A stretch of 64,000 bases of DNA from Candidatus Omnitrophota bacterium. Its GTDB lineage: Bacteria > Omnitrophota > Gorgyraeia > Gorgyraeales > Gorgyraeaceae. The notes under the pieces were generated by a model that was not told the DNA's origin, did no database searches, and saw only the letters and a list, made by a program, of their open reading frames with translations. Where the stretch lies: assembly GCA_042570105.1 (NCBI GenBank), contig JBHPHW010000001.1:19932-83931 (forward strand), read 5' to 3'. Within the stretch, counting starts at the first letter, position 1; every line of letters begins with the position of its first letter. Made by a program: the position numbers and the translations under genes. Positions 12,201 through 47,833 of the stretch are shown here, in pieces.

Positions 12201-15200
12201 CCAGAAGAACGGGATTTATGGAGAGTACAGTTACCCGAAATATAAGGATACTTGAATCTAAACGCCTGGTTCAGACAGCGAGGGTAAAAGGAAGGGTTGA
12301 GGTATATCTCTATGGACAGGTTCCAGAAGATGCCCTACTAACCATAGATAGGATCTTAGCTTTACTCAGGAAAAACCCACAACAGGGTTTAACAATAAAA
12401 GCGATTGCTCGCAGAATAGGGGTTTCGAAATCAACTGTTAGAAGGAATGTAGACGTTCTTAAATCCAAAGGATTAGTTAAGATAGTGAAGGAAGGAAGGG
12501 GTTTTAGAGTCTATTTGCCAAGTAAATTTCAAGAGACAGCCAGGGAAAAGATCCTAAATGCACTCAGAGAAGATCCCGAAAAGGTCTTAAGAAAGAGTAC
12601 GATAGGCAGAAAGGCAGGGATCCCTAAAACCACAGTCAAGCGACATATAGATATCCTTGAGTCCGAAGGATTAGTCAGGACAAAAGAGGTAGTGGGAGGG
12701 ATTGGTGTCTATTTGCCAGATGAGGTTCCAGAAGATATTTTGACAACCGATGAGAAGATCCTAAAAGCACTTGGAGAAGAAAATGATCTGACGCAGGAGG
12801 CACTTTCCAAGAAGACAGGCCTACATGTAGACACAGTGGGTAGCGCAGTAAAGAGGCTTGAAGCTAAAGGATTGCTTAAAATAGAGAAATCAGGTATCAG
12901 AAATGCGAACAGGGTGCACCTTAAAACTGATAAAGATGCAAGTCTGATTAAACCTGCAATTTCAGGTGGTTCGGAGGAAAGTTTTGTACTTCAACTGCCC
13001 GATGGTACAGCTCATATTTTTGCCCCTGGGGACAGAATTAGGCATCCTCTTTACGGCAATGGGATAATCTTAGAAGTGGTTCCAGACAAAGATGGTGTTC
13101 CTGGGGTTAATATTGAATTTAGTTATAGCAAAGAGGGACAAGCAAAGCTATCGTTATGCCTTGAACTTAGTGCTCTTCAAGGGAAGCTTTCTCCTCTCGA
13201 AAGGGAGAGTGGGAGTTTAGTAAAGAGAGAAAATGAAGACTCTTTAGATGATACAGAGAGGAATATATTAGGTTTAATGGCAAAGGGCAAGACATATCGA
13301 GAGATAGCTGAAGAAACAGAAATTCCAGTAAAAAAAATTACTACCTCGATTTTTTCAGCTATACGCAGGAAATTTAAAACAACTAGCCGCGGTGACCCAG
13401 ATCTTAGACTAAGGACCATAATAATCGGAGCCAAGAGAGGTGATATCGAAGACTTAAACATAGCAAATTTTGTACGCAGAATAGATAGGTTACTCATTAT
13501 AACCAGGACCCTCTTAAATGGACAGGAAGATGCTATAGTAGCATTTATGGATGAGGGTTTTTCAAATAGAGAGATAGCCAGCGAATTAGGCATAGAAGAA
13601 GGTGAGGTAGAGGCGCATATCTCTAATATAAACAGGGAATTAAAAGAATCGATAGAGGAAATTACAGAAGAGTCAATCCTGAACCTAGAGGAAACAGGGA
13701 CAATTCTTCCTTTGTCAGATCTTGAGAGAGAGATATTGAGGGCCAATGGAGATTCTCCTAGAGAGGTAGCAGAAGAGTTGGATAAGGCAGGTGGGCAAAT
13801 CGAGAGTTATTGGAATAGTATCTTGGTTAAATTCAATGTAAGTACAATAACTGAGGCAAGAAAGATATTTTTCGTGAAGATAAGGGGAGGACTCTTAGAA
13901 CAAGGATACCCTGAGCTTATAGCCGATGGAGTAGCCAGAGACAAAAATCCCGTAAAAGAAGCTAGAGAGCTTTTAGGCAGACAAGAAGGCTTTATCGAAG
14001 ACGGATATCCGCCAAGATTGGCTTCTCTCCTGGCGCTTAAGGAAAGAGACCCCGAAAATATAATAGAGCTAGGGATAGAAATAGCCATACAAGAATTCCT
14101 AGAAGGCAGAAATTCTAAGTGCATAGAGTTTCTTGAAGGATTGATGGAGGAAGTTTCTATAGAGGATATAACCGATAAGATAAGGAATATTTGTTTAAGA
14201 GACCTAGAAATACTAAAAGGATTTTCTAGAATAAAACAATCAACTAGATTTGGGGACTTGATCAAAAGCATAATTCCAGACACGCCAAACCAGGAAAAGA
14301 CCCTAAAAATAGTACAAGAAAACCCAGGATTAACAGCAAGAGAAATTGCAGGAAGGACACAGGCTGCAATACGCACGGTTAATCGGCATGTAAAAGAGCT
14401 TAAGGACAAAGATCTGATCGAGACTCGGAGGGTAGGGAGAGAAGTTAGAGTTTTTCTGAAAGGTGAAGTCCCGGCAGATGTTCTTACGTACCGGGAAAAG
14501 ATCCTAAAAATAGTACAAGAAAACCCAGGATTAATAATAACAGAAATTGCAAGAAGGACGCGGATTCCAGGAACCACGGTTAGGCGGCATGTAGAAGAGC
14601 TTGAATCCAAAGATCTGATCGAGACTCGGAGGGTAGGGATAGAAGTTAGAGTTTTCCTGAAAGGTGAAGTCCCGGCAGATATTCTTACATCCCGGGAAAG
14701 GATCCTAAAAATACTAAAAGAAAACCCAGGATTAACAACAACAGAAATTGCAAGAAGGACGCAGATTCCAGGAACCACGGTTAGGCGGCATGTAAAAGAT
14801 ATTGAATCCACTGATGCTGATAGAGAAGACGCGGGTGGTGAGGAGAGTACGCCTCAGCCTCTAGTGGCTGTTGCTGGACCAGGTACCTGGGCCCCCGAAG
14901 GTGAATTGGTTGCGCTAGTGGATAGTGAACTGCCACGAGGTGCCAGACAACACCATCCGGAGAATCTGTTTGATGATCAGATAGAGCGCATGCTGTATCC
15001 GGAACATCAGCAAAGGGGAGGCGGCAGCAATGCCACTGAATCTCATATGACAACGCTCGTTGACCAAGTGCGTGAGGGAAATCCAACAGCCATCCAAGAA
15101 GCTATTGCGTTATTGAAGAAAACTTCGTCTAGCCTGCTAGATAGCCAGATGAATGAGTTAGAACAAGCTGTATGTGAATCGCTCGAGATATTTTTCCATG

Positions 15201-18200
15201 AGATCAACCCAGCTTTTCAAGAGGCGTTGCGTGAGGGGACTTCATTCATTGAGCCAGCGACCCCACCAATAGGGAGGTACAGCTACCCCATAAAGAGGTA
15301 CCGCTATCCCATTTGCTGTATGGCGTCTTCAGGCGCGATGTTACAGATTGTTAAGGAGCGTTTCGGTAAGGACATTGAAATCTCAGCCGTCCGAGCCGAC
15401 ATACACAAGGGTAGCTCAGAGAAACATGACTGGAACGAGCTAAAGATAGGTAGTAGGCGGTTCTATTTGAGTTTCACAGACCACCAGTTTGATAGGAGGC
15501 TGTGGGTACACAATCCGCGCGATAGGAGTAAATGGTATGTCAATGAGCGCGATGTTCAAGACTACGATGATTTATCAGCAGAAGAACGCGATAGATTGGT
15601 CGTTTTTGAGGAGATTACCGGAATAGAAGAGGCATTTTATAAAGATCATGGCCTGACGTTCGTGGAGCCCAATTTCAACAAGTTTGACAATGAAGACGAA
15701 ATCCAACGTGTCATCGCGTTTTTCTATGAAATAAGTGATCAGAAAGAGCTCGAATCCACAGCAGCTGGCGAGTCAAGAGATGAGTTAGCTATTGCGCCAC
15801 GCATCTCAGAAGGAATCCAGGAGAGAAAATCCCTTACTCCCTTAGGTCAAAAGATGTATGACTGGTGGGTTGCTCTAATTCACGAAAACCCAGAAAAGGT
15901 CTATCAGATACAGCTCAAGAAAACGATCGCCCAGGCAGTAGAAGTCGATCCAAAAACTGTTTTCAATAACCGGGCAAAAGTCAATCAGCATTTGAACGCT
16001 GACGGTTATCCTATCATTCCCAATAATGTGGCAGATGTTATTTATAACTGGTGGGTTGCCTTGATAAAAGAAAATCCAGAAAAGGCTTATCAAGTACAGT
16101 TCAAGGAAGCGATCGCCAAGGCAATAGGAGTCCAGCCAAAAACTGTCTCTCATAACCTGGCAGGGATCAACCGGCGTCTCAAGGATGACGATCATCTGGT
16201 TATTCCCAATAAAGTAGCAGATGCCGTTTACAATTGGTGGCGTATCGCAATAGAGGAAGATCCAGAAAAGGTCTATCAGATACATTACCGAAAAGTAATA
16301 GCTCAAGCTGTAAGCGTCAAAGAAAATACTATTACCCATTACCTTACAGAAGTTAATCAACGTTTGAAAAATGACGGACATCTTATCATTCCCAATAATG
16401 CTGCAGATGCTATTTACAATTGGTGGTTTGTCCTAATCGCGCAAGATCCAGAACAGGCTTATCAAAAACAGTCCCGGGAAACAATAAGAAAGGCTACAAG
16501 GATCAATATACACAGCGTCTCAACAAATAACCTTGCAAAAGTCAATCAGCGTCTTGAGTCTGAAGGCCGTCCTCAGATTAAGGTAGGGAGAAGGAGTAGG
16601 GCAGAAGAATCCGAACAACCTGAGCGGCCTTTAGCCATCACATCCGCACGTGGACGCGAATTCCATAGATTAGAAAATGGAATGTTGCTACCCGGACCGT
16701 TTACACCTCAAGACATTGACCCATTATCTCTCTTATTCGGCAATAGAGGGACGACCACTCCTCACACAAATCGTGGAGTGCCAGATGTTTTATCTTTAGA
16801 CTTTTTGGGATTAGGGGGAGGAAGAGCACGCGGATATCAGAGGAAAAAATATCCCTCTATAGCTCAGAGCAGTCACCGCCCAGGTGGAGACCGTAAATTT
16901 CCGATCATCACAGGTGGTTCTGAGCCTAGAATACAAGGAAGATCTATCCCCTACTCAGATGAAGAAAAAGAAATATTAATGGCTTATGGAGAAACAATAG
17001 AAACTATAAATAAGGAGTTGCCTCATATAGTAAGTAGGAGGATCGAACTTCTTATTAGTAGTATCGAGGTTAAATCTGACAGAAGTCTCCTGGAGGCAAG
17101 AGAAGATTTTCTACCAATAGGGGACAAACTTTCAAGAAAAGGGTATTCTTCCAATATAATCGAATCAGTAAATCAAAAGATTGAAGAAGGATACCCTGAA
17201 AGCTTAGCTTTCCCTGGAGCAATTATGGCACAGGACCCTAAGAGGGCAGCAGAACTAGGGGTAGCGCAAGCCTTTCGAGAATACTGGCAAACCAGAAACC
17301 CTAAATGCATGGAATTCATTAGAGAACTTTCAGTAATTTCTGAAGAAGATGTTGATAATGAGATATGGAAGATCTATCAAACAAAGACAAGAGAGATGCT
17401 TAGATTTATCCGGATAATCGTGATGATATTCCCTGCATTTATACCTAGAGCAAGAAAGAGGAAAATCCTGGGATTTGTTAAAGAGAATCCTGGAGCAGAG
17501 CAGAGAGAGATTGAAAAAGAGCTAAAGATTCCCAGCTCTTCACTTTCCAAGGACATAGATGAATTAGAAGAAGAAGGTTTAATTGAGAAAAGAAGAGCAG
17601 GTGGACAGAACAGGATCTATCCAAAAGGTAAAGTGCCTGATATTGTCCTCCCAAGAATACAGGAAAGGATCCTAAATGTCATTAAAGAAAAACCAGGACT
17701 AATCGGCGCAGACATTGGAAGGGAATTAGATATCCCCTGGTTTAATGTAGGTTACAACATACGTAGGTTGGAAAAAAGAAGATTGATTAAAAAAGTAGAA
17801 GTAAGAGGAGAGGCTAGAATTTATCTTGAGGGCGAGACTCCAGAGACGGCTCTTACAAAAAGAGAAGAGGAAATACTCAGACTAGTAAGGGAAAAGCCAG
17901 GATTAACGCATGCAGAAATTGCAAGAAGGATAGGATTAACGCCAATCACAATAAAAATTAATACAGAAAGACTAGAAGAGTTAGATTTGGTTGAAAGAGT
18001 AAAACTATTAAAGTGGGACAGGATCTATCCCAAAGGTGAAGTCCCCGAGGTACCTCTTATTGAAAGACAGAAGAGAATCTACAGAGCGATCCAGGATAAC
18101 CCGGGAATATCTCAAAGAGAACTTGAGGAGAAGGCAAAAGTTACCGAAGGTACAGTCAGAAGAGATCTAAAAAAATTAAAAGAGGTGGGTTTAGTAAGGA

Positions 18201-36572: not shown

Positions 36573-37802
36573 ATGCCTGTTAGAAAAGAAAGGGTGTTCG
36601 AAAGTCAGTCGCTTTCGGACCACGAAAAGAAAAATTTTTCCATATTAGAGCTTATTCGTAGGAACGGTCCTATTACGAGAGCTGATATTTCAAAGACAAC
36701 AGATCTAAATATAGTAACGGTCTCAAATTATATAAATACCTACATTGACGAAGGATTGGTCATTGAGGGCGGGATGGAGGCATCTTCAGGCGGCAGGAAG
36801 CCGTCCCTTGTCAAATTAAACGAGGGGAACTCTTGTGCCATAGGACTTGATCTCGGGCATATGGGCGCAGGGGGCGCGAGTATGATAGGAGTGGTTACAG
36901 ACCTTTCAGGCAAGGTAATAACAAGGATTGAGAAAAAAAGAGAAAAAGACAGCATGGATAGGATCATTGATAAATCCCTTGACCTGATAGACGAATTAAT
37001 AAATAAAAAAGGTGTTAATAAAGACAAGGTCAAAGGGGTCGGTATAGGTCTGGGTGGGATCATAGATGAGAACCTCGGCACAGTAAGGGACTCTTCAAAA
37101 AGCGGCATACGCACAAGCTACGTATCCATAAAAGGCCTTATTGAAGAGAGGTTTAGTTTGCCTTCTTTCTTAGGCAATGATGCTACGTTTGCTGCATTTG
37201 GCGAGAAGATGCATGCCCTTCCTATGGATGTGGAGGATGTTATCTATATGTATTCTGACGTAGGAAGCGGTATTATAATAAAAGGCGGCATCTATTGTGG
37301 CGCCAGCGGCTCAGCAGGAGAGATCCGTATTAATTATCCAAGAAATGGAGATTATATGAGATCTTCAAAGGACCTTTCATTTTTACTGCCTATGGGCCTG
37401 GACCTTGGGCTTATAGCTAATGCAAAGAAATTGATAGAAGATGAAGGGATCTCTTCGACTATAGCTAAAAATGGCACAGAGAATATAACAATGAATGATA
37501 TAATGGAGGCAGCGAAATCTAGCGATACCCTTGCAATAGAGTTACTGGAGGATGCAGCTGTTAATTTAGGGGTGAGGATCGCATATTTAGTAAATCTGTT
37601 TAATCCGGAGATAGTTATAATAGGTGGTGGCATTGAAAAGGCAGGGAGTTTATTTCTAGAGCCATTGAGAAGGACAGTGAGAAAGTGGGCCTTTGAGGAA
37701 CCCGCTAATATTGTAAAGATAATACCTGCGTATCTTGGTAATGATGCTGTGGCATTAGGCGCAGCCAGTGTTGTAATAAAGAATGTTTTTATAAAGGCAT
37801 AA
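36573..37802 (+). CDS. ROK-family transcriptional regulator (N-terminal wHTH plus sugar-kinase-like domain).
   Basis: HTH ILELIRRNGPITRADISKTTDLNIVTVSNYINTYIDEGLV. ROK motifs GLDLGHMGAGGASMIGVV, GIGLGGIID. RBS aaaaaaaaggagggcaaccATG. Confidence 0.8.
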   Translation: MPVRKERVFESQSLSDHEKKNFSILELIRRNGPITRADISKTTDLNIVTVSNYINTYIDEGLVIEGGMEASSGGRKPSLVKLNEGNSCAIGLDLGHMGAGGASMIGVVTDLSGKVITRIEKKREKDSMDRIIDKSLDLIDELINKKGVNKDKVKGVGIGLGGIIDENLGTVRDSSKSGIRTSYVSIKGLIEERFSLPSFLGNDATFAAFGEKMHALPMDVEDVIYMYSDVGSGIIIKGGIYCGASGSAGEIRINYPRNGDYMRSSKDLSFLLPMGLDLGLIANAKKLIEDEGISSTIAKNGTENITMNDIMEAAKSSDTLAIELLEDAAVNLGVRIAYLVNLFNPEIVIIGGGIEKAGSLFLEPLRRTVRKWAFEEPANIVKIIPAYLGNDAVALGAASVVIKNVFIKA

Positions 37803-37808
37803 CCGTAT

Positions 37809-37868
37809 CAAAACTGTATCAAAATCTTTGTAACTGTATATTGACAAAAGAGTAATCGTATGATATAC
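37809..37868 (+). promoter_or_regulatory. Sigma70-type promoter (-35 TTGACA, 17-bp spacer, extended -10 TGaTATACT) preceded by tandem direct repeats CTGTATCAAAA x2 and a third CTGTATATTGACA overlapping the -35. Candidate operator for the efflux operon.
   Basis: Read directly: accgtatcaaaactgtatcaaaatctttgtaactgtatattgacaaaagagtaatcgtatgatatacttc. The gene start is about 22 nt downstream, with RBS aaggagaag. Confidence 0.45.
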
Positions 37869-37890
37869 TTCTCGCTTACAAGGAGAAGCC

Positions 37891-39714
37891 GTGCAGATAA
37901 AGCGTATCATATTGTTATATCTTGTTACAATTATTACAGTTATAGTAATATATCCCTCCGTATCACTTTCTTATCCAACCTCAGATGAATCTGTTACTCA
38001 ATATATACTAGACTTATCAAGAGATATTACTAAATCTATCCAGAAATCAGATAAGTCTATAATATATAGTTCAAGAGGAGAGCTTGTTTTAAAGCTTCTC
38101 CTTTCTCCATGGGGCGAATTAAAGGATGTTTACATCTCTGAATCTTCAGGCAATGAAGAGCTTGATGGCCTCTTTCTAAAGACAGTTTGGATGTATGACA
38201 GGTACCAACCTTTTCCTGAAGATCTTGGTGAGAATGAGCTCTGGATAGATGTGCCTATAATATTAGAGATCGATAGTCTCAGGGCCACGCAGGATAAGGT
38301 ATGGAGCTACTCTGAAGATGTCAAGACGCAATTCATTGGGCCTGAGGGTTTAGGTATAGATGAAGCAGTTGACATCGCATTGGAGAATCGGGAGGCCTTA
38401 AAGATAGCTCATGAAGAGATGGAGCTCTCTAATCTTAAAATCAGAGAGGCCAGGCGAGCGCTTTATCCTACTGCAAGTCTTAATTTTTTAGAGACAGTTG
38501 GAAGGGTTAGTAGCGCGGTGCAGGATTTTACTGACAAAGAGTATAAAGTAAAATTTGAATACCCTCTGTATTATGGGTGGAGGCTTAAATATGCGGTTGA
38601 CCAGGCAGTCAGTAATATGAAGGCTTCTAAACATAACTATGATAAGGTCATGCAGGATTTAAGGATCGGAGTAGAGACAGCATTCTACTCATATATAGCG
38701 ACTAAGTCTAATGTAAGGTTACAAAGGGCCCTTTTAGATGAGGCAGAGGGAATTTTTGATGTCGCAGAAAAAAGATTCAGGCTTGGATTGACCACAAAGG
38801 CTGAATTTTTACAGGTAGAGTCTCAACTAAACCAGATTATTTATCAAGTAACTTCGAGTGAGAATGATATGGAAATAGCAGCCCTTACTTTGGCGCAGGC
38901 AATGGATGCTAAAGATCCAAATAACTTGGAAGATCTGATAGATATAGACAAGGATTTTATGGATCTAGAGCCTATAGATATAAGTGTGACATTGGAAGAG
39001 TGTATGGAGTTGGCATACAAGAATAGGCCTGATAAGAAGGAAAAAGAGCATATGGTGGAATTTAATGACTACGGACGAAAGATCGCGAAGAGCAAGGACC
39101 AGTTAGCGCTTGACTTCACCGGCACTTATGGAAAATCCGGGGGCGCATTTGAGTCTGAAACATTAGAGCTGGATGAGGATTGGTACCTGGGCCTAAAAGT
39201 TTCAAAACCTTTAGGCGGCAATACACTTTCTACTACCTATACAAAGGAGGAGACAAGCCCAAAGCACGGCCAGTCAACAAATACAGAGACAGTCAGTAAG
39301 TCGGTAGAATTGGGGCTGCTTGATAATCTTCAGAGTTTTTCTGAGAAGAAATCCAGCGGCATTGCATTAAAGAAGGCCAGAGAGGAGTTGTGGCAGGTTA
39401 AAGAATCCATTTTTAAAGAAGTAAAAGAGACCTTCCTGAATTATACAAAAGGATTGGTCCAGATAAGGTCTAATATAAATAAGATCAGATATAGAGAGGA
39501 AGAGCTAAAGATCACAAAGGCGCGGAGTGAGTTAAATGAGATACCATCCTCAGGGCTTTTAAAGGCGCATATAGATTTGACCGATGAAAGGTCATTTTAC
39601 ATCGAGGCGGTTGGCAGCCTATATCAGTCTCTTGTAAAGTTAAATAAGGCCACAGGTTATGCCCTGTTTTTAGATAACGAAAGTTTTATGTTGGCGAACG
39701 TAGGAAAACAATGA
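37891..39714 (+). CDS. Outer-membrane efflux protein (TolC/OMF family) with an N-terminal extension.
   Basis: Signal peptide. Two OEP-like repeats with coiled-coil-prone segments (…LYPTASLNFLETVGRVSS…, …LALDFTGTYGKSGG…). Located upstream of MFP plus two RND genes. Confidence 0.6.
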   Translation: MQIKRIILLYLVTIITVIVIYPSVSLSYPTSDESVTQYILDLSRDITKSIQKSDKSIIYSSRGELVLKLLLSPWGELKDVYISESSGNEELDGLFLKTVWMYDRYQPFPEDLGENELWIDVPIILEIDSLRATQDKVWSYSEDVKTQFIGPEGLGIDEAVDIALENREALKIAHEEMELSNLKIREARRALYPTASLNFLETVGRVSSAVQDFTDKEYKVKFEYPLYYGWRLKYAVDQAVSNMKASKHNYDKVMQDLRIGVETAFYSYIATKSNVRLQRALLDEAEGIFDVAEKRFRLGLTTKAEFLQVESQLNQIIYQVTSSENDMEIAALTLAQAMDAKDPNNLEDLIDIDKDFMDLEPIDISVTLEECMELAYKNRPDKKEKEHMVEFNDYGRKIAKSKDQLALDFTGTYGKSGGAFESETLELDEDWYLGLKVSKPLGGNTLSTTYTKEETSPKHGQSTNTETVSKSVELGLLDNLQSFSEKKSSGIALKKAREELWQVKESIFKEVKETFLNYTKGLVQIRSNINKIRYREEELKITKARSELNEIPSSGLLKAHIDLTDERSFYIEAVGSLYQSLVKLNKATGYALFLDNESFMLANVGKQ

Positions 39715-40901
39715 AGAAATCAAAGACATTTCTAATAGGTTTTATACTTTTATGGGTGTTGGGATTTTTAGTTATATGGGGCATTACAGCATCTAACAGA
39801 TTTTCCATAAAGAAGGCTATTTTGGGCGTAAAGACAGAAGATAAAGAAGTGGACGCTGAGCGAGGGCTAGATTCTGATAGAGCTCCAAGAAGCGATGCAG
39901 TGCCGGTCAGATGTTTCAGAGTAGGATTGACAGACTTCAAGGATGATCTGCCTGTAATGGGCACAGTAAAAGCGGCATTGGAGATAGGACTTAAGTTTGA
40001 GATCAATGGCGTAATAGAATCCATTGGTTTCAGAGAGGGTGATGTTATTTATAAGGGGGATTTAATAGCTATTTTGAACAAAAAGGATGTGCAGTTAAAA
40101 GTAGATTATTCCAAGAGTAAATTAGAGACCAGTAAAACGCAGTCTCTTGCAGCTAAAAAGAAACACCAGATCATTGAAGATCTTTACGAGATAGGCGGTA
40201 TTATAAAGGCAAAATTAGAAGAGGCAGAGTTGGAGGCAAAGGGCGCTGAGCTTCAGGTTGCATCAGCCGAAGTAGAACTTCGATCAGCAGAGGCAGAGTT
40301 TTTAAAGACAGATCTTTATGCGCCACGTGATGGAGTCTTGGGATCAAGAGATGCCGAGGCGGGAGAATTTGTTACGCCACAAGATAAGATCGCCACCCTA
40401 TATGATACAGTAGAGGTGTTTGTGGAACTTGGCATAGTGGAAAAGGATATAGATAAGATCGCGCTTGGTCAGGACGTAACAGTTACAGTAGATGCATATC
40501 CAGGGGCGGCCTTTACAGGCACAATAGACAATGTTTTTCCTATTATCGAAGGAAAATCCAGGACACTTACTGTCAGGGTAGGGATACAAAACCCAGACGC
40601 ATTGCTCTTGCCGGGTATGTTTGCCAGGGCCATGATTACTGTTGCTGAATTTTATAACGCAATAGTCGTCCCTAGTATGAGCCTAAACATGGTAGACGGA
40701 GATTATATAATTTTTAGCGTTGACGAAGGTAATACTGTTTCCTCGAGGCCTGTAGAGGTGGCCTATGTGACTACTGACTACACTGTGATAGCTTCCGGCC
40801 TGTATGAAGGTGAGGTGATAGTAACTGATACGCCGCAGGAACTTAAAAATGGGATGCCTGCAGAGATCATAGAATTGCAGGAGAGTATCATAGAGGAATA
40901 G
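39711..40901 (+). CDS. RND efflux periplasmic adaptor (membrane fusion protein, HlyD/AcrA family).
   Basis: N-terminal TM anchor. Biotinyl/lipoyl-like halves (GDLIAILNKKD ... YAPRDGVLGS). Long coiled-coil hairpin. Beta-barrel domain (TLTVRVGIQNPD). Confidence 0.75.
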   Translation: MKKSKTFLIGFILLWVLGFLVIWGITASNRFSIKKAILGVKTEDKEVDAERGLDSDRAPRSDAVPVRCFRVGLTDFKDDLPVMGTVKAALEIGLKFEINGVIESIGFREGDVIYKGDLIAILNKKDVQLKVDYSKSKLETSKTQSLAAKKKHQIIEDLYEIGGIIKAKLEEAELEAKGAELQVASAEVELRSAEAEFLKTDLYAPRDGVLGSRDAEAGEFVTPQDKIATLYDTVEVFVELGIVEKDIDKIALGQDVTVTVDAYPGAAFTGTIDNVFPIIEGKSRTLTVRVGIQNPDALLLPGMFARAMITVAEFYNAIVVPSMSLNMVDGDYIIFSVDEGNTVSSRPVEVAYVTTDYTVIASGLYEGEVIVTDTPQELKNGMPAEIIELQESIIEE

Positions 40902-40904
40902 ATA

Positions 40905-40984
40905 GCAGGCGTCCTATTTTGGTACACCCTACTTTTTGCTTTCGTAAAATCTGATTGTAGGGTGTACCAAAATAGGACGCCTGC
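40905..40984. repeat. 28-bp perfect inverted repeat (gcaggcgtcctattttggtacaccctac / gtagggtgtaccaaaataggacgcctgc) separated by a 24-nt loop, between the MFP stop and the RND start.
   Basis: Left arm 40905-40932 and right arm 40957-40984 are exact reverse complements (checked base by base). Spacer tttttgctttcgtaaaatctgatt. Confidence 0.9.
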
Positions 40985-41013
40985 AAAGGCTTGCTCTGAA
41001 GGCTAGATGAATA

Positions 41014-44000
41014 ATGAGACTCTCAGAATTTTCAGTAGATCGGCCTGTTACAATCTCAATGTTTTTTCTTGGGGTGCTGATGCTTGGCCTGATATCCTTG
41101 ACCAGGCTTCCCCGAGAGCTTTTTCCTTCCATTACCTATCCCCAACTTACAGTAATTACCGCATATGAGAATGCTGCACCAGAAGAAGTAGAGACCCTTA
41201 TTACAAAAATAATAGAAGAGACAGTCGGCACCGTAAGCAACTTGAAGCGCATAAGCTCTATATCAAAAGAAGGGGTCTCGATCGTCACTGCTGAATTTGG
41301 CTGGGGCGTTGATATGGATTTTGCATCTTTGGGCGTGCGTGAAAAAATAGATCTTATAAAGGAAAGACTTCCTCTTGGCTCAACCGATCCAATAGTAATG
41401 AAATTCAATCCTTTTGAACTACCCATCATGACACTCAGCGTTACAGGAGATAAGACGCCCTCAGAACTTCTCAGGCTTTCGAGAAAGTTCATAAAAGACG
41501 AACTCGAAAAGGTTGAAGGGGTAGCGTATAGCAATATAAGCGGCGGTTTAGAAAGAGAGATACTTGTGTCTATAGATGAAGGTAGGCTCTCGGCATCCCG
41601 CGTATCCATAACTAAAATAGTTGAGGCATTGAAATCATCCAATTTAAATTATCCTGCAGGCACAATAGAAGAACATTTTTATGAATATCTCATTAGAACG
41701 ATGGGAGAATTTAAGATAGTGCCGGAGATAGAGAAGACTATTGTGGGGAAGGATGAATCAGAGAAAGACCCCCGCGTAAATAAGGCCTCCTCTTACGAAC
41801 AGGAAGGAAGAGCCCGTCTTATATATTTAAAGGATATCGCAGAGATAAAGGATACATTTCAGGAACGGAGTAGCATATCACGTTATAACGGAAAGGAGAA
41901 TATATCAATCGCGGTGCAGAAACAGGCAGGGATGAATACTCTGCAGGTTGCCCAGAATGTAAGGAAGAGGCTTACAGAGATAAGAGGAGATCTACCCCGC
42001 GGCATGGATGTAAAAGTAGTATATGACCAGTCGATATTTATAAAGAGATCGATACGCGGCGTGATGAAGGCAGCTATTCAGGGCGGGATCCTTGCATTTT
42101 TAGTGCTTTTTGTTTTTCTAAGAAATATAAAGGCCTCCTTGATAGTAGCGTTTTCTATGCCGATATCTATTATGGTTGCCTTTAGTCTTATGTATTTTAA
42201 CGGGATTACCTTAAACATGCTTTCTCTGGGAGGGCTTGCGCTTGGCATAGGGATGCTCGTGGATAATGCAATAGTTGTAATCGAGAATATATACAGTCAT
42301 TTTCAGAGAAAAAAGGATATAAAAGAATCCTCAAAATCCGGGGCAAGCGAGATGCAGGGCGCCATATTCTCTTCGACCCTCACTACTGTAGCAGTATTTT
42401 TGCCGATGATATTTGTGGTGGGCGTGGCAGGCCAGTTATTTAAGGAGCTGGCTTTCACTGTGTCATTTTCACTCCTGGCTTCCTTAATAGTGGCGCTCTC
42501 TTTAATACCCCGTCTGACTGCAGTAGGTGGCCGGGTGAAAGCTTCGGATAGAGGCCCTCTCTCGAGTGCTACGGCCTCAAGCGCTGTTTCTCTATCGAGC
42601 GCCGAGGACACCAAAAATAAATATTTTACGTTTGGATTGGACCGTCTTTATTCAAAGGCGATACCCAAGATATTGAAGCATAGATGGCCTTTTTTAGGGG
42701 GCATACTTCTGATATTTACTTTGAGCATAGGCCTATTTACATTGATAGACAAAGAGTTTATGCCTAAGGTAGACCAGCGTGAATTTATCATAAAGGTAAA
42801 TATGCCAGGCGGCACGAAACTAAAGGTCACAGATAATGTCATAGAGAAAATAGAAAGAGAACTTTTTGATATGGAAGAGCCCGGGGGTGTGGCTGTAAGC
42901 ATAGGTTCCAGCAAGAAACGTGATTTTACCCAGGGCCTTGAGACGATGGGTTCTCATCAGGCCCAGATCATAGTGACCTTGAGGAAAGGAAAAAAATGGA
43001 AGGCGACTTCTAAGATAGTAGATAGATTAAAAAATAGACTGGATAGGTTGGATTTAGAAGGCGCAGAGATAGAGTATATTTTGCAGGAAAGTGTTTTTAA
43101 AACAGCGCTTCAGGGGAGCGCTCCTATTGTCATTGAAATAAAAGGAAAAGACCTCAAGAAGATCGAAGAAGTCTCCGAATATGTTAAAGATGGCCTCTTG
43201 GATATAAAAGGTATCTACGGAATACGCACAAGCCTTACTAAGCCTTCCCCCGAAACAAAGGTAAATATTCTAAAAGATAGAGCTAGTCTTTACAATCTTT
43301 CAACAGCTGTGATCGCGCAGGCAGCGCATACTGCAATAAAAGGTGTAGTCGCCACTAAATTTAAAGAAGAAGGGAGAGAGGTAGATATAAAAGTGAGACT
43401 AAGAAAAGAAGGCCGGAAAAGGCTTTCGCAGCTTAGGAATATCCTTATCCATTCTCCGCTTGATATAGAAGTACCGCTCTCAGAGGTCGCTTATATCGCT
43501 CAAGGAGTCGGGCCGAGTGAGATAAAAAGACTTGATCAGCAAAGGGTAGTCCTTGTAACGGCAAATATCGCGGATAGGGCATTGGATAAAGTGATCTTGG
43601 ACATAAATCTATTATTGGAACGGATCGAAGAGGCGCATATTAGAGATCTGGATATGTTAAAGGATAGAGAAAAGGATATCGATATGTCTCTATCAGGAGA
43701 AAGCCGAGAGATGAGAGAATCTTTCAGGTCTCTTAGATTTGCGTTGCTTTTATCGATACTTTTGGTATACATGATAATGGCTGCACAGTTTGAATCTTTA
43801 TGGCAGCCGTTTATTATTATGTTTACAGTACCTTTGTCCCTTATGGGTGTATTTGTCGCATTATTTTTAACGCGCACTCCTATAAGCGTTGTTGTGATGC
43901 TCGGGTTTATAATACTGGGGGGCATTGTTGTCAATAATGGGATTATTTTAATAGACGGTATAAATAGATTGCGCGCTAAAGGAGTAGAATTAATCGAGGC

Positions 44001-44637
44001 TGTTATTGAATCCAGTAAAACCAGACTCAGGCCAATACTCATGACGACCATGACTACAGTGTTAGGTCTTTTGCCTCTGGCATTGGGGATAGCCGAGGGT
44101 TCAGAGCTTCAGAGCCCGATGGCTATAACAGTAATGGGCGGACTTATTGTCTCCACTATCCTGACCCTTTTCGTGATACCGTCTCTTTATACTATTATTG
44201 CGAGCATCATTGCTCTGAGACCAGTCTTAAAGCCAGTGTATGCGGAAGCGCTCAAGCCAACTTTAGTGGGGCTAGCTATTCAAGAGGAAAGAGTGATACC
44301 ATTGCCTCCGCCGCCGCAAGTTGCGCTAGAACTACCAAAGCCAGAGTCAGAACCGCCAAAACCAGAGATAAAACCTGTGGTTCCAAAGCCGAGCATTGAG
44401 CCAAAAGAATTACCAGGCCCTGAGCCAGAAAAACCGCCTTTACAAGAGTTGAATAATCGACAGAAACAGCTAGTGGAGCATTTGAAAACAGTAAAAAGGA
44501 TCACGCGCAAAGAATACGCCAAAGTTTTTAAGATATCCGTACCAACAGCAGCCAGGGATTTAAAGGAGTTATTGGATAAAGGAATGCTTATTGCCCATGG
44601 CCCCCTGGGGCCGGGCAGGTGGTATGAGCTGAAGTGA
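41014..44637 (+). CDS. RND efflux transporter (HAE1/AcrB family) carrying a C-terminal Pro-rich linker and a cytoplasmic winged-helix DNA-binding domain.
   Basis: 12-TM AcrB architecture with two large periplasmic loops. After the last TM: PLPPPPQVALELPKPESEPPKPEIKPVVPKPSIEPKELPGPEPEKPP, then QKQLVEHLKTVKRITRKEYAKVFKISVPTAARDLKELLDKGMLIAHGPLGPGRWYEL (Fic/AlbA_2-associated wHTH-type motif ...TAxRDLKELvxKGil...G.GrgtxY.L). Confidence 0.8.
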   Translation: MRLSEFSVDRPVTISMFFLGVLMLGLISLTRLPRELFPSITYPQLTVITAYENAAPEEVETLITKIIEETVGTVSNLKRISSISKEGVSIVTAEFGWGVDMDFASLGVREKIDLIKERLPLGSTDPIVMKFNPFELPIMTLSVTGDKTPSELLRLSRKFIKDELEKVEGVAYSNISGGLEREILVSIDEGRLSASRVSITKIVEALKSSNLNYPAGTIEEHFYEYLIRTMGEFKIVPEIEKTIVGKDESEKDPRVNKASSYEQEGRARLIYLKDIAEIKDTFQERSSISRYNGKENISIAVQKQAGMNTLQVAQNVRKRLTEIRGDLPRGMDVKVVYDQSIFIKRSIRGVMKAAIQGGILAFLVLFVFLRNIKASLIVAFSMPISIMVAFSLMYFNGITLNMLSLGGLALGIGMLVDNAIVVIENIYSHFQRKKDIKESSKSGASEMQGAIFSSTLTTVAVFLPMIFVVGVAGQLFKELAFTVSFSLLASLIVALSLIPRLTAVGGRVKASDRGPLSSATASSAVSLSSAEDTKNKYFTFGLDRLYSKAIPKILKHRWPFLGGILLIFTLSIGLFTLIDKEFMPKVDQREFIIKVNMPGGTKLKVTDNVIEKIERELFDMEEPGGVAVSIGSSKKRDFTQGLETMGSHQAQIIVTLRKGKKWKATSKIVDRLKNRLDRLDLEGAEIEYILQESVFKTALQGSAPIVIEIKGKDLKKIEEVSEYVKDGLLDIKGIYGIRTSLTKPSPETKVNILKDRASLYNLSTAVIAQAAHTAIKGVVATKFKEEGREVDIKVRLRKEGRKRLSQLRNILIHSPLDIEVPLSEVAYIAQGVGPSEIKRLDQQRVVLVTANIADRALDKVILDINLLLERIEEAHIRDLDMLKDREKDIDMSLSGESREMRESFRSLRFALLLSILLVYMIMAAQFESLWQPFIIMFTVPLSLMGVFVALFLTRTPISVVVMLGFIILGGIVVNNGIILIDGINRLRAKGVELIEAVIESSKTRLRPILMTTMTTVLGLLPLALGIAEGSELQSPMAITVMGGLIVSTILTLFVIPSLYTIIASIIALRPVLKPVYAEALKPTLVGLAIQEERVIPLPPPPQVALELPKPESEPPKPEIKPVVPKPSIEPKELPGPEPEKPPLQELNNRQKQLVEHLKTVKRITRKEYAKVFKISVPTAARDLKELLDKGMLIAHGPLGPGRWYELK

Positions 44638-44650
44638 GGGCAATTTTGTT

Positions 44651-47600
44651 ATGAATCTATCCGAATTTTCAGTTAAAAGACCTATTACGATATTTATGAT
44701 ATTCCTCGGAATATTGCTGCTGGGATTCGTGTCTTTGTTGCGTCTCCCTGTAGAATTAAAGCCTAACATAGCATATGGAGATATAAGCATAATCGTGGCT
44801 GTAAGAGGAGGCATGCCTCCTCAGGAAGTAGAAGCGCTTGTTACAAAACCTATAGAGGAGGCAGTAAGCACTGTAAGTTATTTAAATAATATATATTCGA
44901 CATCGAAGGCAGGAGAGTCCAGGATATGGCTTGAATATGAACCAGGCACAAATATGGATTTTGCCGCGCTCGAGGTAAGAGAGAAATTTTCAAAAATAAG
45001 GGATAAGCTTCCGCGGGAGATAGAAAAGCCTATTATCGCACAGTATAAAGAGTCTGATATGCCGATAGTTATTTTAGCAGTCACAGGGGAAGGTTATACA
45101 CCTGAAGAGTTAAGGAAGGTCGTTGATATAGAGATAAAGGAAAGGATACTGCGCGTGGAAGGCGTTGCAAACGTCGATATCTATGGCGGCAGGGAACGTA
45201 AGATCTTAGTCGAGGTTGATAAAAATAAGCTGTATCAGTACCGGATACCCATGGAGCATGTTGTCAATCTACTCGGCGCAAATAATTTAAATCTGCTCGC
45301 AGGGGACATTGAGCGCAGAAAAAATAAATATCTTATAAGGATAATGGGAGAATTTGAATCCCTCGATGATATTAAAGATATAGGGATCACCCTCACCCCT
45401 CAGGGTTCTATTATTAAGCTTAGAGAAATCGCAAAGGTAAAGGATTCTTTTCTAGAACCCACAAATTATGCCCGGACAGATATAGAGCCTGTAGTCTCTA
45501 TTTATATACAGAAGGAGTCAACGGCAAATACACTGCAAGTAGTCTCGAGCTTACAGGAAGAGATAAGGCGCTTAAAAAGGACATTAGACAAAGACATATT
45601 AATAAAGGCTACCCTGAATCAATCAGATGCGATAAAAGAGGCTATAAACGCTGTTAAGACCTCTCTTCTTTACGGAGCGATACTAGCAGTGCTAGTCCTA
45701 TTATTATTTTTAAAAGACCTTAGGGTTACTTCGATAATAGGTGTCACGATCCCAATATCGGTCATGGCTACATTTATACTGATGTATTTTCATAAGATAT
45801 CCTTGAATGTCATGACCCTCAGCGGTCTGGCGCTTGGTATAGGGATGTTGGTAGATAATTCTATTGTAGTTTTAGATAATATAGATAAAAAGAAGAGGGC
45901 GATGAGGGCTTCTGAAAGAGATTCAAAAACAAGATATGCGGAGACAGTTGTAAATGGGGCCAACGAGATGGGCCTGGCAATATTCGCCTCTACCATAACT
46001 ACGGTAATAGTTTTTTTGCCTTTTATTTTTGTAAATAAAGCGACCCGCATGCTCTGGAGTGGGCTGGCATTGACTGTGACGTATTCTCTTTTAGGTTCTC
46101 TCTTTGTCGCATTGACACTTGTGCCCATGTTGTCAAGCCGGATAAAACTAGCGCCTTACAGCGTAAAGCCAAAAAAATCAATGTTTAAAAGGGATTTTTT
46201 TTCAAATATAAAAAGCTATTATAGGAAGATACTTGTTATTGGCCTGAAGTTAAGGTATGTATTTGTGCTTGGCTCTTTCGGGATTTTAGCGCTGGTATTA
46301 CTATTAGGATCCAGGATAGAAAGAGAGTTTATGGCAGAGGCAGAGGAAGGGCGCTTTACTATATTTGTAGAATTAGAACCAGGCGCAAAGCTTGACATAA
46401 CAGACGAGATGGCGAAGGAGATAGAGATATTAATTTCTGGTATCCAGGAGGTAAAGACCTTTACTTCACGGGTCGAGCCATGGTCAAGCAAGATATATGT
46501 GAAACTTTTGCCCCTTGCCGGTAGAAAACGCACGACTAAAGCTATTATCGAAGACATACGAACCCGGGCGCAGGCAGTTGAGCGGAAATACAAAGGAGGT
46601 TTTATCTATTTTTCAGAGATAGAAGAGAAGGGCTTAAAGGAGATCATACTGGACCTCTATGGTTATCAATATGAGATATTAAAGGAACTAGCAGTTTCAG
46701 TGGCTACCAGGCTCGGGGCTATAGAAGGTTTTGAGGATATCAGGATGTCCAGGATCAGCGGGAGACCTGAATGGGGCATTACGGTTGATAAAGAAAGGGC
46801 AGGGATGTATGGTTTGAGCGTAAAGGATATAGCTGAAACACTGCATTCTGAGATAAGGGGCTTGCGCGCTACATTATACCATACAGAGTCGAGAGAAATA
46901 GAGACCGTATCCCGTTTGAGAAAAGAAGATAGAAAGCGGCTGGATGACTTAAGAAAACTTGTCCTTTTTTCAAGCGATGGGAATCCAATACTCTTGGAAC
47001 AGGTGGCTGATTTTACGCCTCAGATAGGCGCAAGCGAGATCATTAGAAAGAATAAAATGAGGGTTGTCCATATAACGGCCCTTCTTACAAAGGACTCACT
47101 TATAAATGCCGCAAAAAAGATCAAGGAAAATATTTCTAGTATGGAGTTTCCGAAGGATTATTATTATAGGATAGGCGGTAATTATGAAAGAAATATTGAG
47201 AACGAAAAAGAACTCTGGGCGCCTCCTACGGGAGTGTTGTGGATAACAATATTTTTAGTTTATCTAGTGCTTGCCTCCCTATTTGAATCGTATGCCCAGC
47301 CATTTATTATAATGATATCGGTCCCTCTGGCAGCCATAGGAGTAATAGTCGGATTAAAGATCGCAAATAAACCGATAAGCCGCGGAGTGATCATAGGGGG
47401 CATCATGCTTGCAGGGATCGTCGTTAATAATGCGATTGTTTTAGTGGATAGGATAAATTTTTTAAGGAGGAAGAAAACGGGTGGCGGAGGACGGAGGACG
47501 GATTTATTACGCTCGCTCGTAGAAGCGGGTGAGGACCGCTTGAGACCAATAGCCATGACAACTTCAACGACTATATTGGGCCTTATCCCAATGGCATTTG

Positions 47601-47833
47601 ATAAGAGTGAGTCGGCAAATTTATGGTCCCCTCTTGCGATCACTGTGATAGGGGGGATAGCGTCTTCAACTATACTGACACTGTTTTTACTCCCCAGTAT
47701 TTATTTGGTCTTTGAAGATCTGAAGGATATAGGAGGCCGTTTACTAAGGATCCCTAATATTCTGAGACACCCTATGATTATACAGATCTCTAAGAGATTA
47801 AACATCCCGCTTCGCCAAGGGAGAAATCTCTAA
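44651..47833 (+). CDS. Second RND efflux transporter (HAE1/AcrB family), tandem paralogue (MdtB/MdtC-like arrangement).
   Basis: MNLSEFSVKRPITIFMIFLGILLLG... and the conserved TM4 region GLALGIGMLVDNSIVVLDNI, parallel to GLALGIGMLVDNAIVVIENI in the first pump. Confidence 0.85.
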   Translation: MNLSEFSVKRPITIFMIFLGILLLGFVSLLRLPVELKPNIAYGDISIIVAVRGGMPPQEVEALVTKPIEEAVSTVSYLNNIYSTSKAGESRIWLEYEPGTNMDFAALEVREKFSKIRDKLPREIEKPIIAQYKESDMPIVILAVTGEGYTPEELRKVVDIEIKERILRVEGVANVDIYGGRERKILVEVDKNKLYQYRIPMEHVVNLLGANNLNLLAGDIERRKNKYLIRIMGEFESLDDIKDIGITLTPQGSIIKLREIAKVKDSFLEPTNYARTDIEPVVSIYIQKESTANTLQVVSSLQEEIRRLKRTLDKDILIKATLNQSDAIKEAINAVKTSLLYGAILAVLVLLLFLKDLRVTSIIGVTIPISVMATFILMYFHKISLNVMTLSGLALGIGMLVDNSIVVLDNIDKKKRAMRASERDSKTRYAETVVNGANEMGLAIFASTITTVIVFLPFIFVNKATRMLWSGLALTVTYSLLGSLFVALTLVPMLSSRIKLAPYSVKPKKSMFKRDFFSNIKSYYRKILVIGLKLRYVFVLGSFGILALVLLLGSRIEREFMAEAEEGRFTIFVELEPGAKLDITDEMAKEIEILISGIQEVKTFTSRVEPWSSKIYVKLLPLAGRKRTTKAIIEDIRTRAQAVERKYKGGFIYFSEIEEKGLKEIILDLYGYQYEILKELAVSVATRLGAIEGFEDIRMSRISGRPEWGITVDKERAGMYGLSVKDIAETLHSEIRGLRATLYHTESREIETVSRLRKEDRKRLDDLRKLVLFSSDGNPILLEQVADFTPQIGASEIIRKNKMRVVHITALLTKDSLINAAKKIKENISSMEFPKDYYYRIGGNYERNIENEKELWAPPTGVLWITIFLVYLVLASLFESYAQPFIIMISVPLAAIGVIVGLKIANKPISRGVIIGGIMLAGIVVNNAIVLVDRINFLRRKKTGGGGRRTDLLRSLVEAGEDRLRPIAMTTSTTILGLIPMAFDKSESANLWSPLAITVIGGIASSTILTLFLLPSIYLVFEDLKDIGGRLLRIPNILRHPMIIQISKRLNIPLRQGRNL

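Follow-up and report, generated by a model that had tools for sequence, protein, structure and literature searches.

A dispersed Omnitrophota repeat unit appears as a head-to-head hairpin doublet between the adaptor and pump genes of an RND efflux operon

The subject of this report is an 80-nt inverted repeat (40905-40984) in a 64,000-nt stretch of a Candidatus Omnitrophota bacterium genome (GenBank assembly GCA_042570105.1, contig JBHPHW010000001.1, positions 19,932 to 83,931), hereafter the window, where it lies between the membrane-fusion adaptor (MFP) gene and the first RND pump gene of a tripartite efflux operon. We propose, with a probability that we put at about 60%, that the element is a head-to-head doublet of a short repeat unit dispersed in Omnitrophota, similar in kind to repetitive extragenic palindromes and bacterial interspersed mosaic elements (REP/BIME) or to MITEs (miniature inverted-repeat transposable elements), and that it occupies a permissive intercistronic gap in which it would have an uncoupling role at the RNA level. 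It looks like an ordinary repeat insertion that forms an RNA hairpin and not like a control site made for this operon. Orthologous operons lack the element, and several of them carry hairpins of unrelated sequence at the same junction. Omnitrophota are uncultured and, to our knowledge, almost nothing is known of their non-coding DNA.

The element consists of a first arm (40905-40932, plus strand, GCAGGCGTCCTATTTTGGTACACCCTAC) that is a forward copy of the repeat unit, a 24-nt loop or spacer (40933-40956, TTTTTGCTTTCGTAAAATCTGATT) that begins TTTTT, and a second arm (40957-40984, minus strand) that is an inverted copy of the unit and reads GTAGGGTGTACCAAAATAGGACGCCTGC on the plus strand. The arms are complementary at 28 of 28 positions, both on reading the sequence and in a repeat search, which extended a looser pairing to 41-nt arms with 85% complementarity (40892-40997). 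Arm 1 has its AGGCGTCC end toward the MFP gene and its CCCTAC end toward the loop. The gap between the end of the MFP open reading frame (ORF) at 40901 and the start of the RND ORF at 41014 is 112 nt, of which the stem-loop takes up all but the 3 nt that follow the MFP TAG stop and the 29 nt ahead of the RND ATG. A reading made earlier from the sequence alone (the sequence-only reading) had described just such a 28-bp perfect stem with a 24-nt loop in a 112-nt adaptor-pump gap, and its coordinates and complementarity were borne out; re-reading of the arms, their complementarity and comparison with shuffled sequences rule out chance or mis-transcription. The pair is the only inverted repeat in the whole window with at least 20 nt, more than 80% complementarity and a separation within 200 nt, and a pattern search for the arm allowing up to three mismatches recovered the two arms only in the 64 kb and nothing in 100 shuffles. 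The sole ORF that overlaps the element, a 67-aa frame on the minus strand, was taken as spurious.

The predicted stability of the hairpin is as high as the sequence-only reading had supposed. The RNA of the 112-nt gap folds at -61.1 kcal/mol (z -10.75) and that of a 136-nt stretch across the element at -62.3 kcal/mol (z -8.7), the DNA of the element (101 nt) folds at -34.6 kcal/mol (z -10.6), and none of the shuffled sequences folds as well. There is no U-run 3' of the stem, where the bases are AAAGGCTTGC, while the loop does start with uuuuu, again as first described. An intrinsic terminator was rejected on the absence of a U-run, on the 24-nt loop (3-8 nt would be expected) and on a scan for terminator and promoter consensus sequences that placed no site within the gap (40902-41013); with essential pump genes lying downstream, the original judgement that the structure is too long and too perfect for a simple terminator stands. 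A known RNA family was likewise rejected: no Rfam family matched at its gathering score anywhere in the window, or at the unit in any of the loci described below.

Both arms are copies of a sequence that recurs elsewhere. The unit is asymmetric, 26-28 nt long and of the form (GT)AGACGTCCTATTTTGGTACACCCTAC, in which AGACGTCCTATTTTGGTACACCCTAC is the 26-nt core, often written GTAGACGTCC...CCCTAC; in a subset of units the core is followed by a ~17-nt extension, CAAnnnnnAATTATAC. In genome and metagenome scans that recorded exact matches and so left diverged copies uncounted, an arm-derived 20-mer matched one other genome among 185,579 species genomes, the Omnitrophota metagenome-assembled genome (MAG) L001, and an arm-derived 21-mer matched 13 contigs among 241 million metagenome records, the copies lying at intergenic sites that are unrelated to one another. 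The L001 genome has one exact 20-mer copy and a one-mismatch copy 2.9 kb away in direct orientation, both with toxin-antitoxin, XRE and acyltransferase genes around them, and one of the metagenome contigs encodes a Thi4 protein that clusters at a threshold of at least 90% with Omnitrophota MAG proteins. A core of 22-26 nt is common to the unit-bearing loci L001-L014, among which L001/L005/L002 and L004/L011/L014 are partly homologous, leaving about ten independent loci. All-against-all blastn and nhmmer comparisons confined the similarity among unit-bearing loci to the 26-45-nt unit, and the neighbouring genes are unrelated (acyltransferase, MazE, nitroreductase, Thi4, TylF, SDR, kinase, pilins and AAA ATPase); no protein turned up beside the unit repeatedly. 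The literature that we searched does not contain the motif, and the unit would be the first dispersed repeat unit to be described for Omnitrophota. An assembly fold-back chimera can be discarded, as the operon is collinear with its orthologs on both sides of the element and the unit is present in independent assemblies. No match in viral contigs, plasmids or phages went beyond a chance 28-nt match (E 0.9), which excludes an origin from these sources among the sequences searched, and a CRISPR-like array was rejected in that no contig has more than two exact 21-mer matches and no regular array appears even when diverged copies are counted.

The unit is arranged in several ways. It is single in L003, L006, L008, L010, L013 and L014, forms a direct pair in L001, L002 and L009, and forms head-to-head hairpin doublets in L007, L009 and L012, in which the loops are 3-10 nt long and there is an internal loop, 4x4 T/T; in L004 and L011 an inverted pair of the other polarity encloses one gene, which encodes a TylF methyltransferase in the former and a 228-aa protein of unassigned kind in the latter. 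Both arms of the window doublet carry a G (AGGC, not AGAC) that is seen at no other locus, and since they alone share it they are each other's closest relatives, a likeness that either a local inverted duplication or maintenance of pairing could have produced. The minus strand of the loop resembles the extension of single units CAAnnnnnAATTATAC (L013:4822-4879 and window 40988-40934 are 81% identical over 58 nt by blastn), and because of this match the doublet looks, from sequence comparison, like one extended unit joined to an inverted core unit.

To place the element in its operon, we compared ten distinct orthologous operons, the window included, in all of which the gene order is the same. 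Adaptor identity among them is 66-77%, and 70-74% relative to the window adaptor, which is itself 100% identical to a Candidatus Omnitrophota MAG protein (on an 86-kb contig), with its next relatives at ~74%. Three operons (L017, L018/19 and L024/25) have no gap between adaptor and pump genes, which overlap by 4 nt at an ATGA stop/start (GAAGAATGAGAC), and two have a short gap without a hairpin (9 nt in L023, 30 nt in L020/21). The remaining five have a longer gap with a hairpin: 112 nt in the window (z -10.8), 111 nt in L015 (-45.9 kcal/mol, z -9.4), 75 nt in L016 (-26.7 kcal/mol, z -4.2), 129 nt in L022 (-69.4 kcal/mol, z -8.1) and 70 nt in L027-29 (-20.3 kcal/mol, z -4.2); L026 was left unscored, its contig ending 29 nt past the MFP stop. 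These five hairpins are mutually unrelated in sequence, they begin 0-9 nt past the stop codon, and a U-run is missing after every one of them. No further copy of the unit came up in the window or in the orthologous operons in a profile search (nhmmer --max). The hairpin of L016 has an arm-identical copy past the ROK gene of the same locus and, because it recurs there, it also belongs to a repeat family.

The bases immediately before the RND gene, GATGAATA followed by ATGAGAC, match exactly between the window and L022; at this place L016 and L027 have GTGAAGA+ATGA, and L020 and L023 have GTGAAAA+ATGA. The stretch between stem and RND start (40985-41013, 29 nt) is therefore older than the palindrome, its last bases being common to L022 and close to those of L016 and L027. 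In a star-like neighbor-joining tree the three overlap operons cluster, and hairpin-bearing and hairpin-less gap operons are interleaved; our own reading of these sequences is that the gap may have had a single origin in this branch, with turnover of the hairpins in it since then. The comparison thus yields a pattern in which one junction of a conserved tripartite efflux operon passes from a stop/start overlap to a gap that holds unrelated, terminator-less hairpins according to lineage. If these hairpins are selected, they would be a simple way to uncouple adaptor and pump synthesis; if they are not, they are an example of permissive intercistronic gaps collecting palindromic repeats, and either outcome would be incremental beside what is known of REP/BIME and Correia elements.

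Under the proposal of a repeat doublet with an uncoupling role, a gap already present in this branch of operons would have received a different palindrome from one lineage to another. The element would be co-transcribed from the best sigma-70-like promoter of the operon (37841-37869, plus strand, TTGACA-17-TATACT with a TG), which lies upstream of the outer-membrane factor (OMP) gene, and transcripts would have to pass the palindrome to reach the pump genes; such read-through is suggested because the pump genes are without a convincing promoter of their own. The RNA would form the 28-bp stem and, as there is no U-tract, transcription would probably continue past it. The ancestral ATGA stop/start coupling, by termination-reinitiation, would then have been replaced by independent initiation at the pump's own ribosome-binding site, for which there is a candidate (GAAGG, 40998-41002) outside the stem. 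The hairpin could serve as the stable 3' end of an OMP-MFP mRNA after downstream cleavage, as a barrier to 3'-exonuclease, and/or the stem could be an RNase III cut site, and by either route adaptor levels would be uncoupled from pump levels. Adaptor protomers outnumber those of the pump in tripartite pumps, at 6:3 in AcrAB-TolC, and a modest surplus of the upstream message would suit this ratio. The candidate of an intra-operon stabiliser, attenuator or RNase III site in the sequence-only reading is plausible, and the unrelated hairpins that four other orthologous operons hold in the same gap, again with no U-run, lend it indirect support.

The same junctions bear on whether the palindrome does anything at all, for it could be a neutral passenger, that is, selfish or accidental repeat DNA without selected effect in a tolerant gap that was already uncoupled, which we consider possible though rather unlikely. 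The gap is older than the palindrome, its last 8 nt ahead of the RND gene being the same as in L022 and near those of L016 and L027; L020 and L023 keep a gap without a hairpin; the ribosome-binding site lies outside the stem; and hairpins are found in other gaps of the same operon. All five MFP-RND gaps longer than 30 nt, on the other hand, are almost filled by one significant hairpin, none with a U-run, as is expected of selected hairpins compatible with read-through. According to Di Nocera and colleagues (PMC3733652), a perfect palindrome of this kind is expected to be unstable in replication unless it is recent or maintained; this instability fits a simply recent insertion as well, and the neutral explanation stays credible.

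A number of observations weigh against the proposal of a mobile-type doublet with an RNA-level role. The OMP-MFP gaps of 46-57 nt in L016, L024 and L027 also hold hairpins, so the tendency is not confined to the MFP-RND junction and a neutral attraction of palindromes to any gap would explain the recurrence as well as selection does. The isolated 28-nt unit has a minimum free energy of 0 to -0.3 kcal/mol, no better than that of shuffles, and hence no self-structure, unlike a true REP. No transposase was found beside any copy of the unit in L001-L014. Copies are few (one doublet in 64 kb, one exact and one one-mismatch copy in L001, and 13 contigs among 241 million metagenome records), and the complete 80-nt element has no second copy in the genome, metagenome, viral, plasmid and phage searches, in which the arms alone recur. 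No clear target-site duplication abuts the arms, whose flanks, GATA and AAAG, are unrepeated. Liang, Rudd and Deutscher (2015) reportedly showed that, in E. coli, the gene upstream of a REP is expressed less when the REP lies within 15 nt of its stop codon, by way of stalled ribosomes and trans-translation; an effect of this sort would work against the logic of an excess of adaptor, so that a shift in the adaptor:pump ratio might go either way. The sequence-only reading, with its several candidates, is supported in part: the MITE- or REP-like mobile repeat is the candidate that the evidence favours, for the arm recurs at unrelated Omnitrophota and metagenome loci and three orthologs have no gap. 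The check for further copies did not, however, give the many that had been predicted, and wherever a copy number could be obtained it was low. Near the element there is an imperfect repeat of 10 nt, TAGAGGAATA (40891-40900) and TAGATGAATA (41004-41013), at 4 and 19 nt from the arms; it was rejected as a target-site duplication on account of this offset and of its right copy, which is shared with L022 and hence older than the insertion.

REPs classically act as intercistronic hairpins that stabilise mRNA and give differential expression within operons, as between malE and malF, and in the REPIN concept REP doublets are mobilised by RAYT transposases. Di Nocera, De Gregorio and Rocco (2013) describe REP and terminal inverted repeat (TIR) sequences as singles, dimers and groups that lie mostly downstream of ORFs, where the genes on either side are co-directional, and whose dimers can fold into large RNA hairpins (PMC3733652). 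The window element and its relatives resemble the REP/BIME and REPIN picture drawn there in being short intergenic repeats, mostly past stop codons between co-directional genes, that occur as singles, dimers (head-to-head or tail-to-tail) and clusters, in a dimer that folds into one large hairpin and perhaps in a GTAG at one end of the unit (PMC3733652). They differ in that a REP is an imperfect palindrome whereas the window unit does not fold on itself, in low copy number, in that no RAYT was seen among the scanned window ORFs or next to the units of L001-L014, and in arms that are perfect over 28 bp. The reverse complement of the unit starts GTAGGG in most copies and many copies of the form GTAGACGTCC...CCCTAC contain CGTC, though without a palindromic body such a tag has no defined meaning. 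REP proper was rejected because the unit is not itself an imperfect palindrome and because the copy number, two arms in 64 kb and the few exact-match copies elsewhere, is far from the tens to hundreds per genome that are usual for REPs. By analogy, the unit family especially resembles the TIR repeat families associated with TIRYT tyrosine transposases, which the same authors present as moderately abundant, not necessarily self-complementary, found as singles, dimers or groups, and present in phyla outside Proteobacteria (PMC3733652). TIR families are nevertheless defined by a flanking TIRYT gene, for which the search here covered the 64-kb window, and their shared motif, GGGGWSAS, is absent from the window unit.

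Correia elements (CREE) are 100-155 bp long, have a TA target duplication and reach tens to hundreds of whole-element copies per genome. The window element shares with them (CREE/NEMIS) and with MITEs such as ERIC and RUP the ~26-bp terminal inverted repeats and a short core, and differs from CREE in having no duplication at the arm ends and in that its arms recur and the 80-nt element does not. Correia elements are reported to be inserted in transcribed intergenic DNA, including the Neisseria mtrCDE RND pump locus, to be able to supply promoters, and to give RNA hairpins that are bound or cut by RNase III (PMC2649163). The 28-bp perfect terminal inverted repeats around a 24-nt non-coding core are those of a MITE; a demonstrated MITE was rejected, with no target duplication, no second whole element and no parent insertion sequence found in the searches. 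A further likeness is to the intercistronic RNase III hairpins of phage T7 early mRNA and of rpsO-pnp, which are also long, near-perfect duplexes between cistrons without a terminator U-run. RNase III sites of the T7 and rpsO-pnp kind have a duplex of more than two helical turns; they are dedicated and conserved in place, unlike the window hairpin, which is made of dispersed repeat units and has no counterpart in the orthologs.

The single genes between inverted 26-nt units in L004 and L011, and the toxin-antitoxin and accessory genes near other copies, recall pdif modules and attC sites, from which the unit differs in that it lacks Xer-type dyad arms and an R-box core and has no recombinase in its vicinity, and the window copy in lying inside a conserved core operon. 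Recognised sites of this type were examined as candidates and set aside: an integron attC (the arm ends are GCAGGCG and CGCCTGC in place of RYYYAAC and GTTRRRY core sites, and the stem is perfect where attC has extrahelical bases), and a Xer/dif-like or hix/gix site (by inspection, the halves GTAGACGTCCT and GTACACCCTAC share only the terminal GTAG/CTAC). A Ter-like replication terminus was set aside too, GC skew being uniformly positive in the window and the direct copies of L009 lying 57 nt apart.

The arrangement of units around genes raises the question of a role at the level of DNA, in which the 26-nt unit would mark the boundary of exchangeable gene modules (cassette- or MIC-like) or a site of recombination between them, the window doublet then being a junction or scar. 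We regard this as unlikely. In its favour, inverted units flank single genes that differ between L004 (TylF) and L011 (the 228-aa protein) at what seems to be the same tRNA-proximal site, where L014 has a third gene; the AGACGTCC end points toward the adjacent gene body in the pairs and in most of the single copies checked; the L002 contig, with identical terminal 125 nt and one unit, could be a 1.5-kb circle; the direct copies of L001 lie 2.9 kb apart amid toxin-antitoxin and XRE cassettes; and the doublets of L007 and L012, when folded, have an unpaired bubble between two stems, which recalls a folded attC loosely. Against it, the unit is without the internal dyad of a Xer, invertase or tyrosine-recombinase core site and without an integron R box (GTTRRRY), there is no recombinase near any copy, no partner unit lies within 40 kb upstream or 23 kb downstream in the window, and the window flanks are conserved core operon genes and not cassettes. 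The more specific conjecture that the unit is the recognition site of an undescribed Omnitrophota system of gene-module exchange, with the AGACGTCC end inward and modules swapped at fixed sites, is decidedly improbable; if it were true, the window doublet would be two module ends abutting, and the adaptor and pump halves of RND operons would be exchangeable as modules. The hint of unit-bounded modules in L004/L011/L014 and L002 is nonetheless, with the recurrent unrelated junction hairpins that have no U-run, the most interesting residue of the analysis.

Several side observations concern the unit-bearing loci. On the intron/tRNA side of the unit L004, L011 and L014 are alike, and on its other side each of the three has a gene of its own; the intron, of group I (70.7 bits; L014:1425-1635, minus strand), and the tRNA gene (L004:1740-1812, minus strand) lie 190-300 nt from the unit. 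The L002 contig is 1642 nt long and, with its terminal 125 nt identical, may represent a 1517-bp circle or a tandem duplication; it contains a single repeat unit together with a gene for a nitroreductase and a TrpB fragment that is truncated, and shows homology to parts of L001. In an 8-kb variable region of L001 another palindromic repeat, CTAATGCGACA..TGTCAC..TGTCGCATTAG, which forms two stems around a 3-nt A/T bubble, is present five times (L001:1349-1404, 1879-1934, 2526-2581, 5000-5055 and 6498-6553), together with duplicated XRE genes and a MazE-type toxin-antitoxin pair. Terminator-like hairpins, GGGGACGGTTC...GAACCGTCCCC plus a T-run, lie beside the unit at L009:840-1215, L011:1130-1170 and L001:4151-4194, and they may be a further shared intergenic repeat.

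The loop and the extension direct attention to transcription starting within the element. A -10-like TAAAAT lies in the loop (40945-40950), 6 nt ahead of arm 2, and TATAAT or TAGAAT stands at the same offset in L004, L006, L011 and L013, 6-8 nt upstream of the GTAGGG end, with TTGCAC or TTGCAT 17 nt further upstream in L011 and L013. The unit with its extension might therefore be a portable promoter that carries a -10, the loop TAAAAT driving a pump transcript from arm 2 independently of the operon promoter, and Correia elements are reported to create promoters (PMC2649163). We find this unlikely, and a loop promoter a weak possibility: the window has no acceptable -35 (GGTACA, 3/6, at 18 nt), no promoter was placed there by the scan, the -10 is missing in 13 of 18 copies, and L003, L007, L008 and L014 have clearer promoters across the unit from this position. 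Two related candidates were rejected, namely a sigma-54 or ECF promoter, which on visual inspection fits neither in spacing nor in the key GC/AAC elements, and a conserved mRNA 5' leader, the -10 being at a fixed offset in 5 of 18 copies and the others having promoters on the far side or lying past terminators.

The operon in which the element lies starts with the OMP gene (OEP; 37891-39714, plus strand), which overlaps the MFP start by 4 nt; the MFP gene (HlyD_D23; 39711-40901, plus strand; TAG stop at 40899-40901) is followed across the gap by RND pump gene 1 (41014-44637, plus strand), whose product begins MRLSEFSV where orthologs have MRLPEFSV, and, 13 nt past it, by RND pump gene 2 (44651-47833, plus strand), the two forming an MdtBC-like pair. 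Ahead of the operon is a gene for a ROK-family regulator with a helix-turn-helix (HTH) domain (36573-37802), and the first pump has an HTH_DeoR-like C-terminus (E 1.4e-4). With the perfect dyad of the site, these make it conceivable that the palindrome is dedicated to the operon, either as an operator to be bound by the HTH tail of the pump or by the ROK regulator, or as an attenuator or terminator that sets pump levels. We judge such a function very improbable: L018, L024 and L017 keep the tail and the ROK gene without a gap, other orthologs carry unrelated hairpins, the unit also occurs as non-palindromic singles beside unrelated genes, and without a U-tract the structure is not an intrinsic terminator. 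The site is in this way not co-conserved with the HTH tail or the ROK regulator, and an own-regulator operator was rejected; the earlier idea that the winged-helix tail of the pump binds the palindrome is not supported, given that L018 and L024 retain the HTH_DeoR-like tail without any palindrome and that hairpin-bearing orthologs have other sequences there.

The rest of the window is housekeeping in character (ABC sugar transporter, glycosidases, type II secretion system parts, purH, Mur ligase, mnmE, folE and histidine kinases). The scan for domains took in 25 window ORFs of at least 150 aa, a set without the giant ORF described below and one 187-aa ORF, and gave no transposase or integrase; together with the housekeeping neighbourhood this fits an isolated small insertion. 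GC skew is positive throughout.

Some features of the operon and its orthologs are of separate interest. The HTH_DeoR-like stretch of RND1 spans aa 1149-1193 (E 1.4e-4) and is likewise flagged in L015, L018, L022 and L024, so that a DNA-binding-type domain fused to an RND transporter, which is unusual, appears to be conserved in this Omnitrophota clade. A TonB_C-like stretch near the N-terminus of the outer-membrane factor (aa 63-123) falls just under the Pfam cut-off and is flagged in most orthologs. The palindrome of L016, 38-40 nt and of the form CAACTTTACATTTCTGTCC(A/T)GGACAGAAATGTAAAGTTG, occurs twice in 13 kb (3946-3983, past the ROK gene, and 7182-7219, past the MFP gene) and represents a second palindromic repeat family, unrelated to the window unit, in another Omnitrophota genome. 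The 129-nt gap hairpin of L022 (1199-1327, -69 kcal/mol) is made of runs of the heptamer GACAGAR and their complement. The OMP-MFP hairpins have 10-13 bp (L016:5955-6000, L024:1444-1500 and L027:1453-1500), and those of L024 and L027 are alike (GTTCAAGGC...GCCTTGAAC). Elsewhere in the window, a single ORF of 8596 aa (71-25861, plus strand) takes up 40% of the sequence and has internal repeat blocks at 1467-2022, 14289-14826 and 15854-16476, and a perfect 32-nt palindrome (11211-11242, core AATAGCGGGTACCTTAAGGTACCCGCTATT) lies inside its coding sequence.

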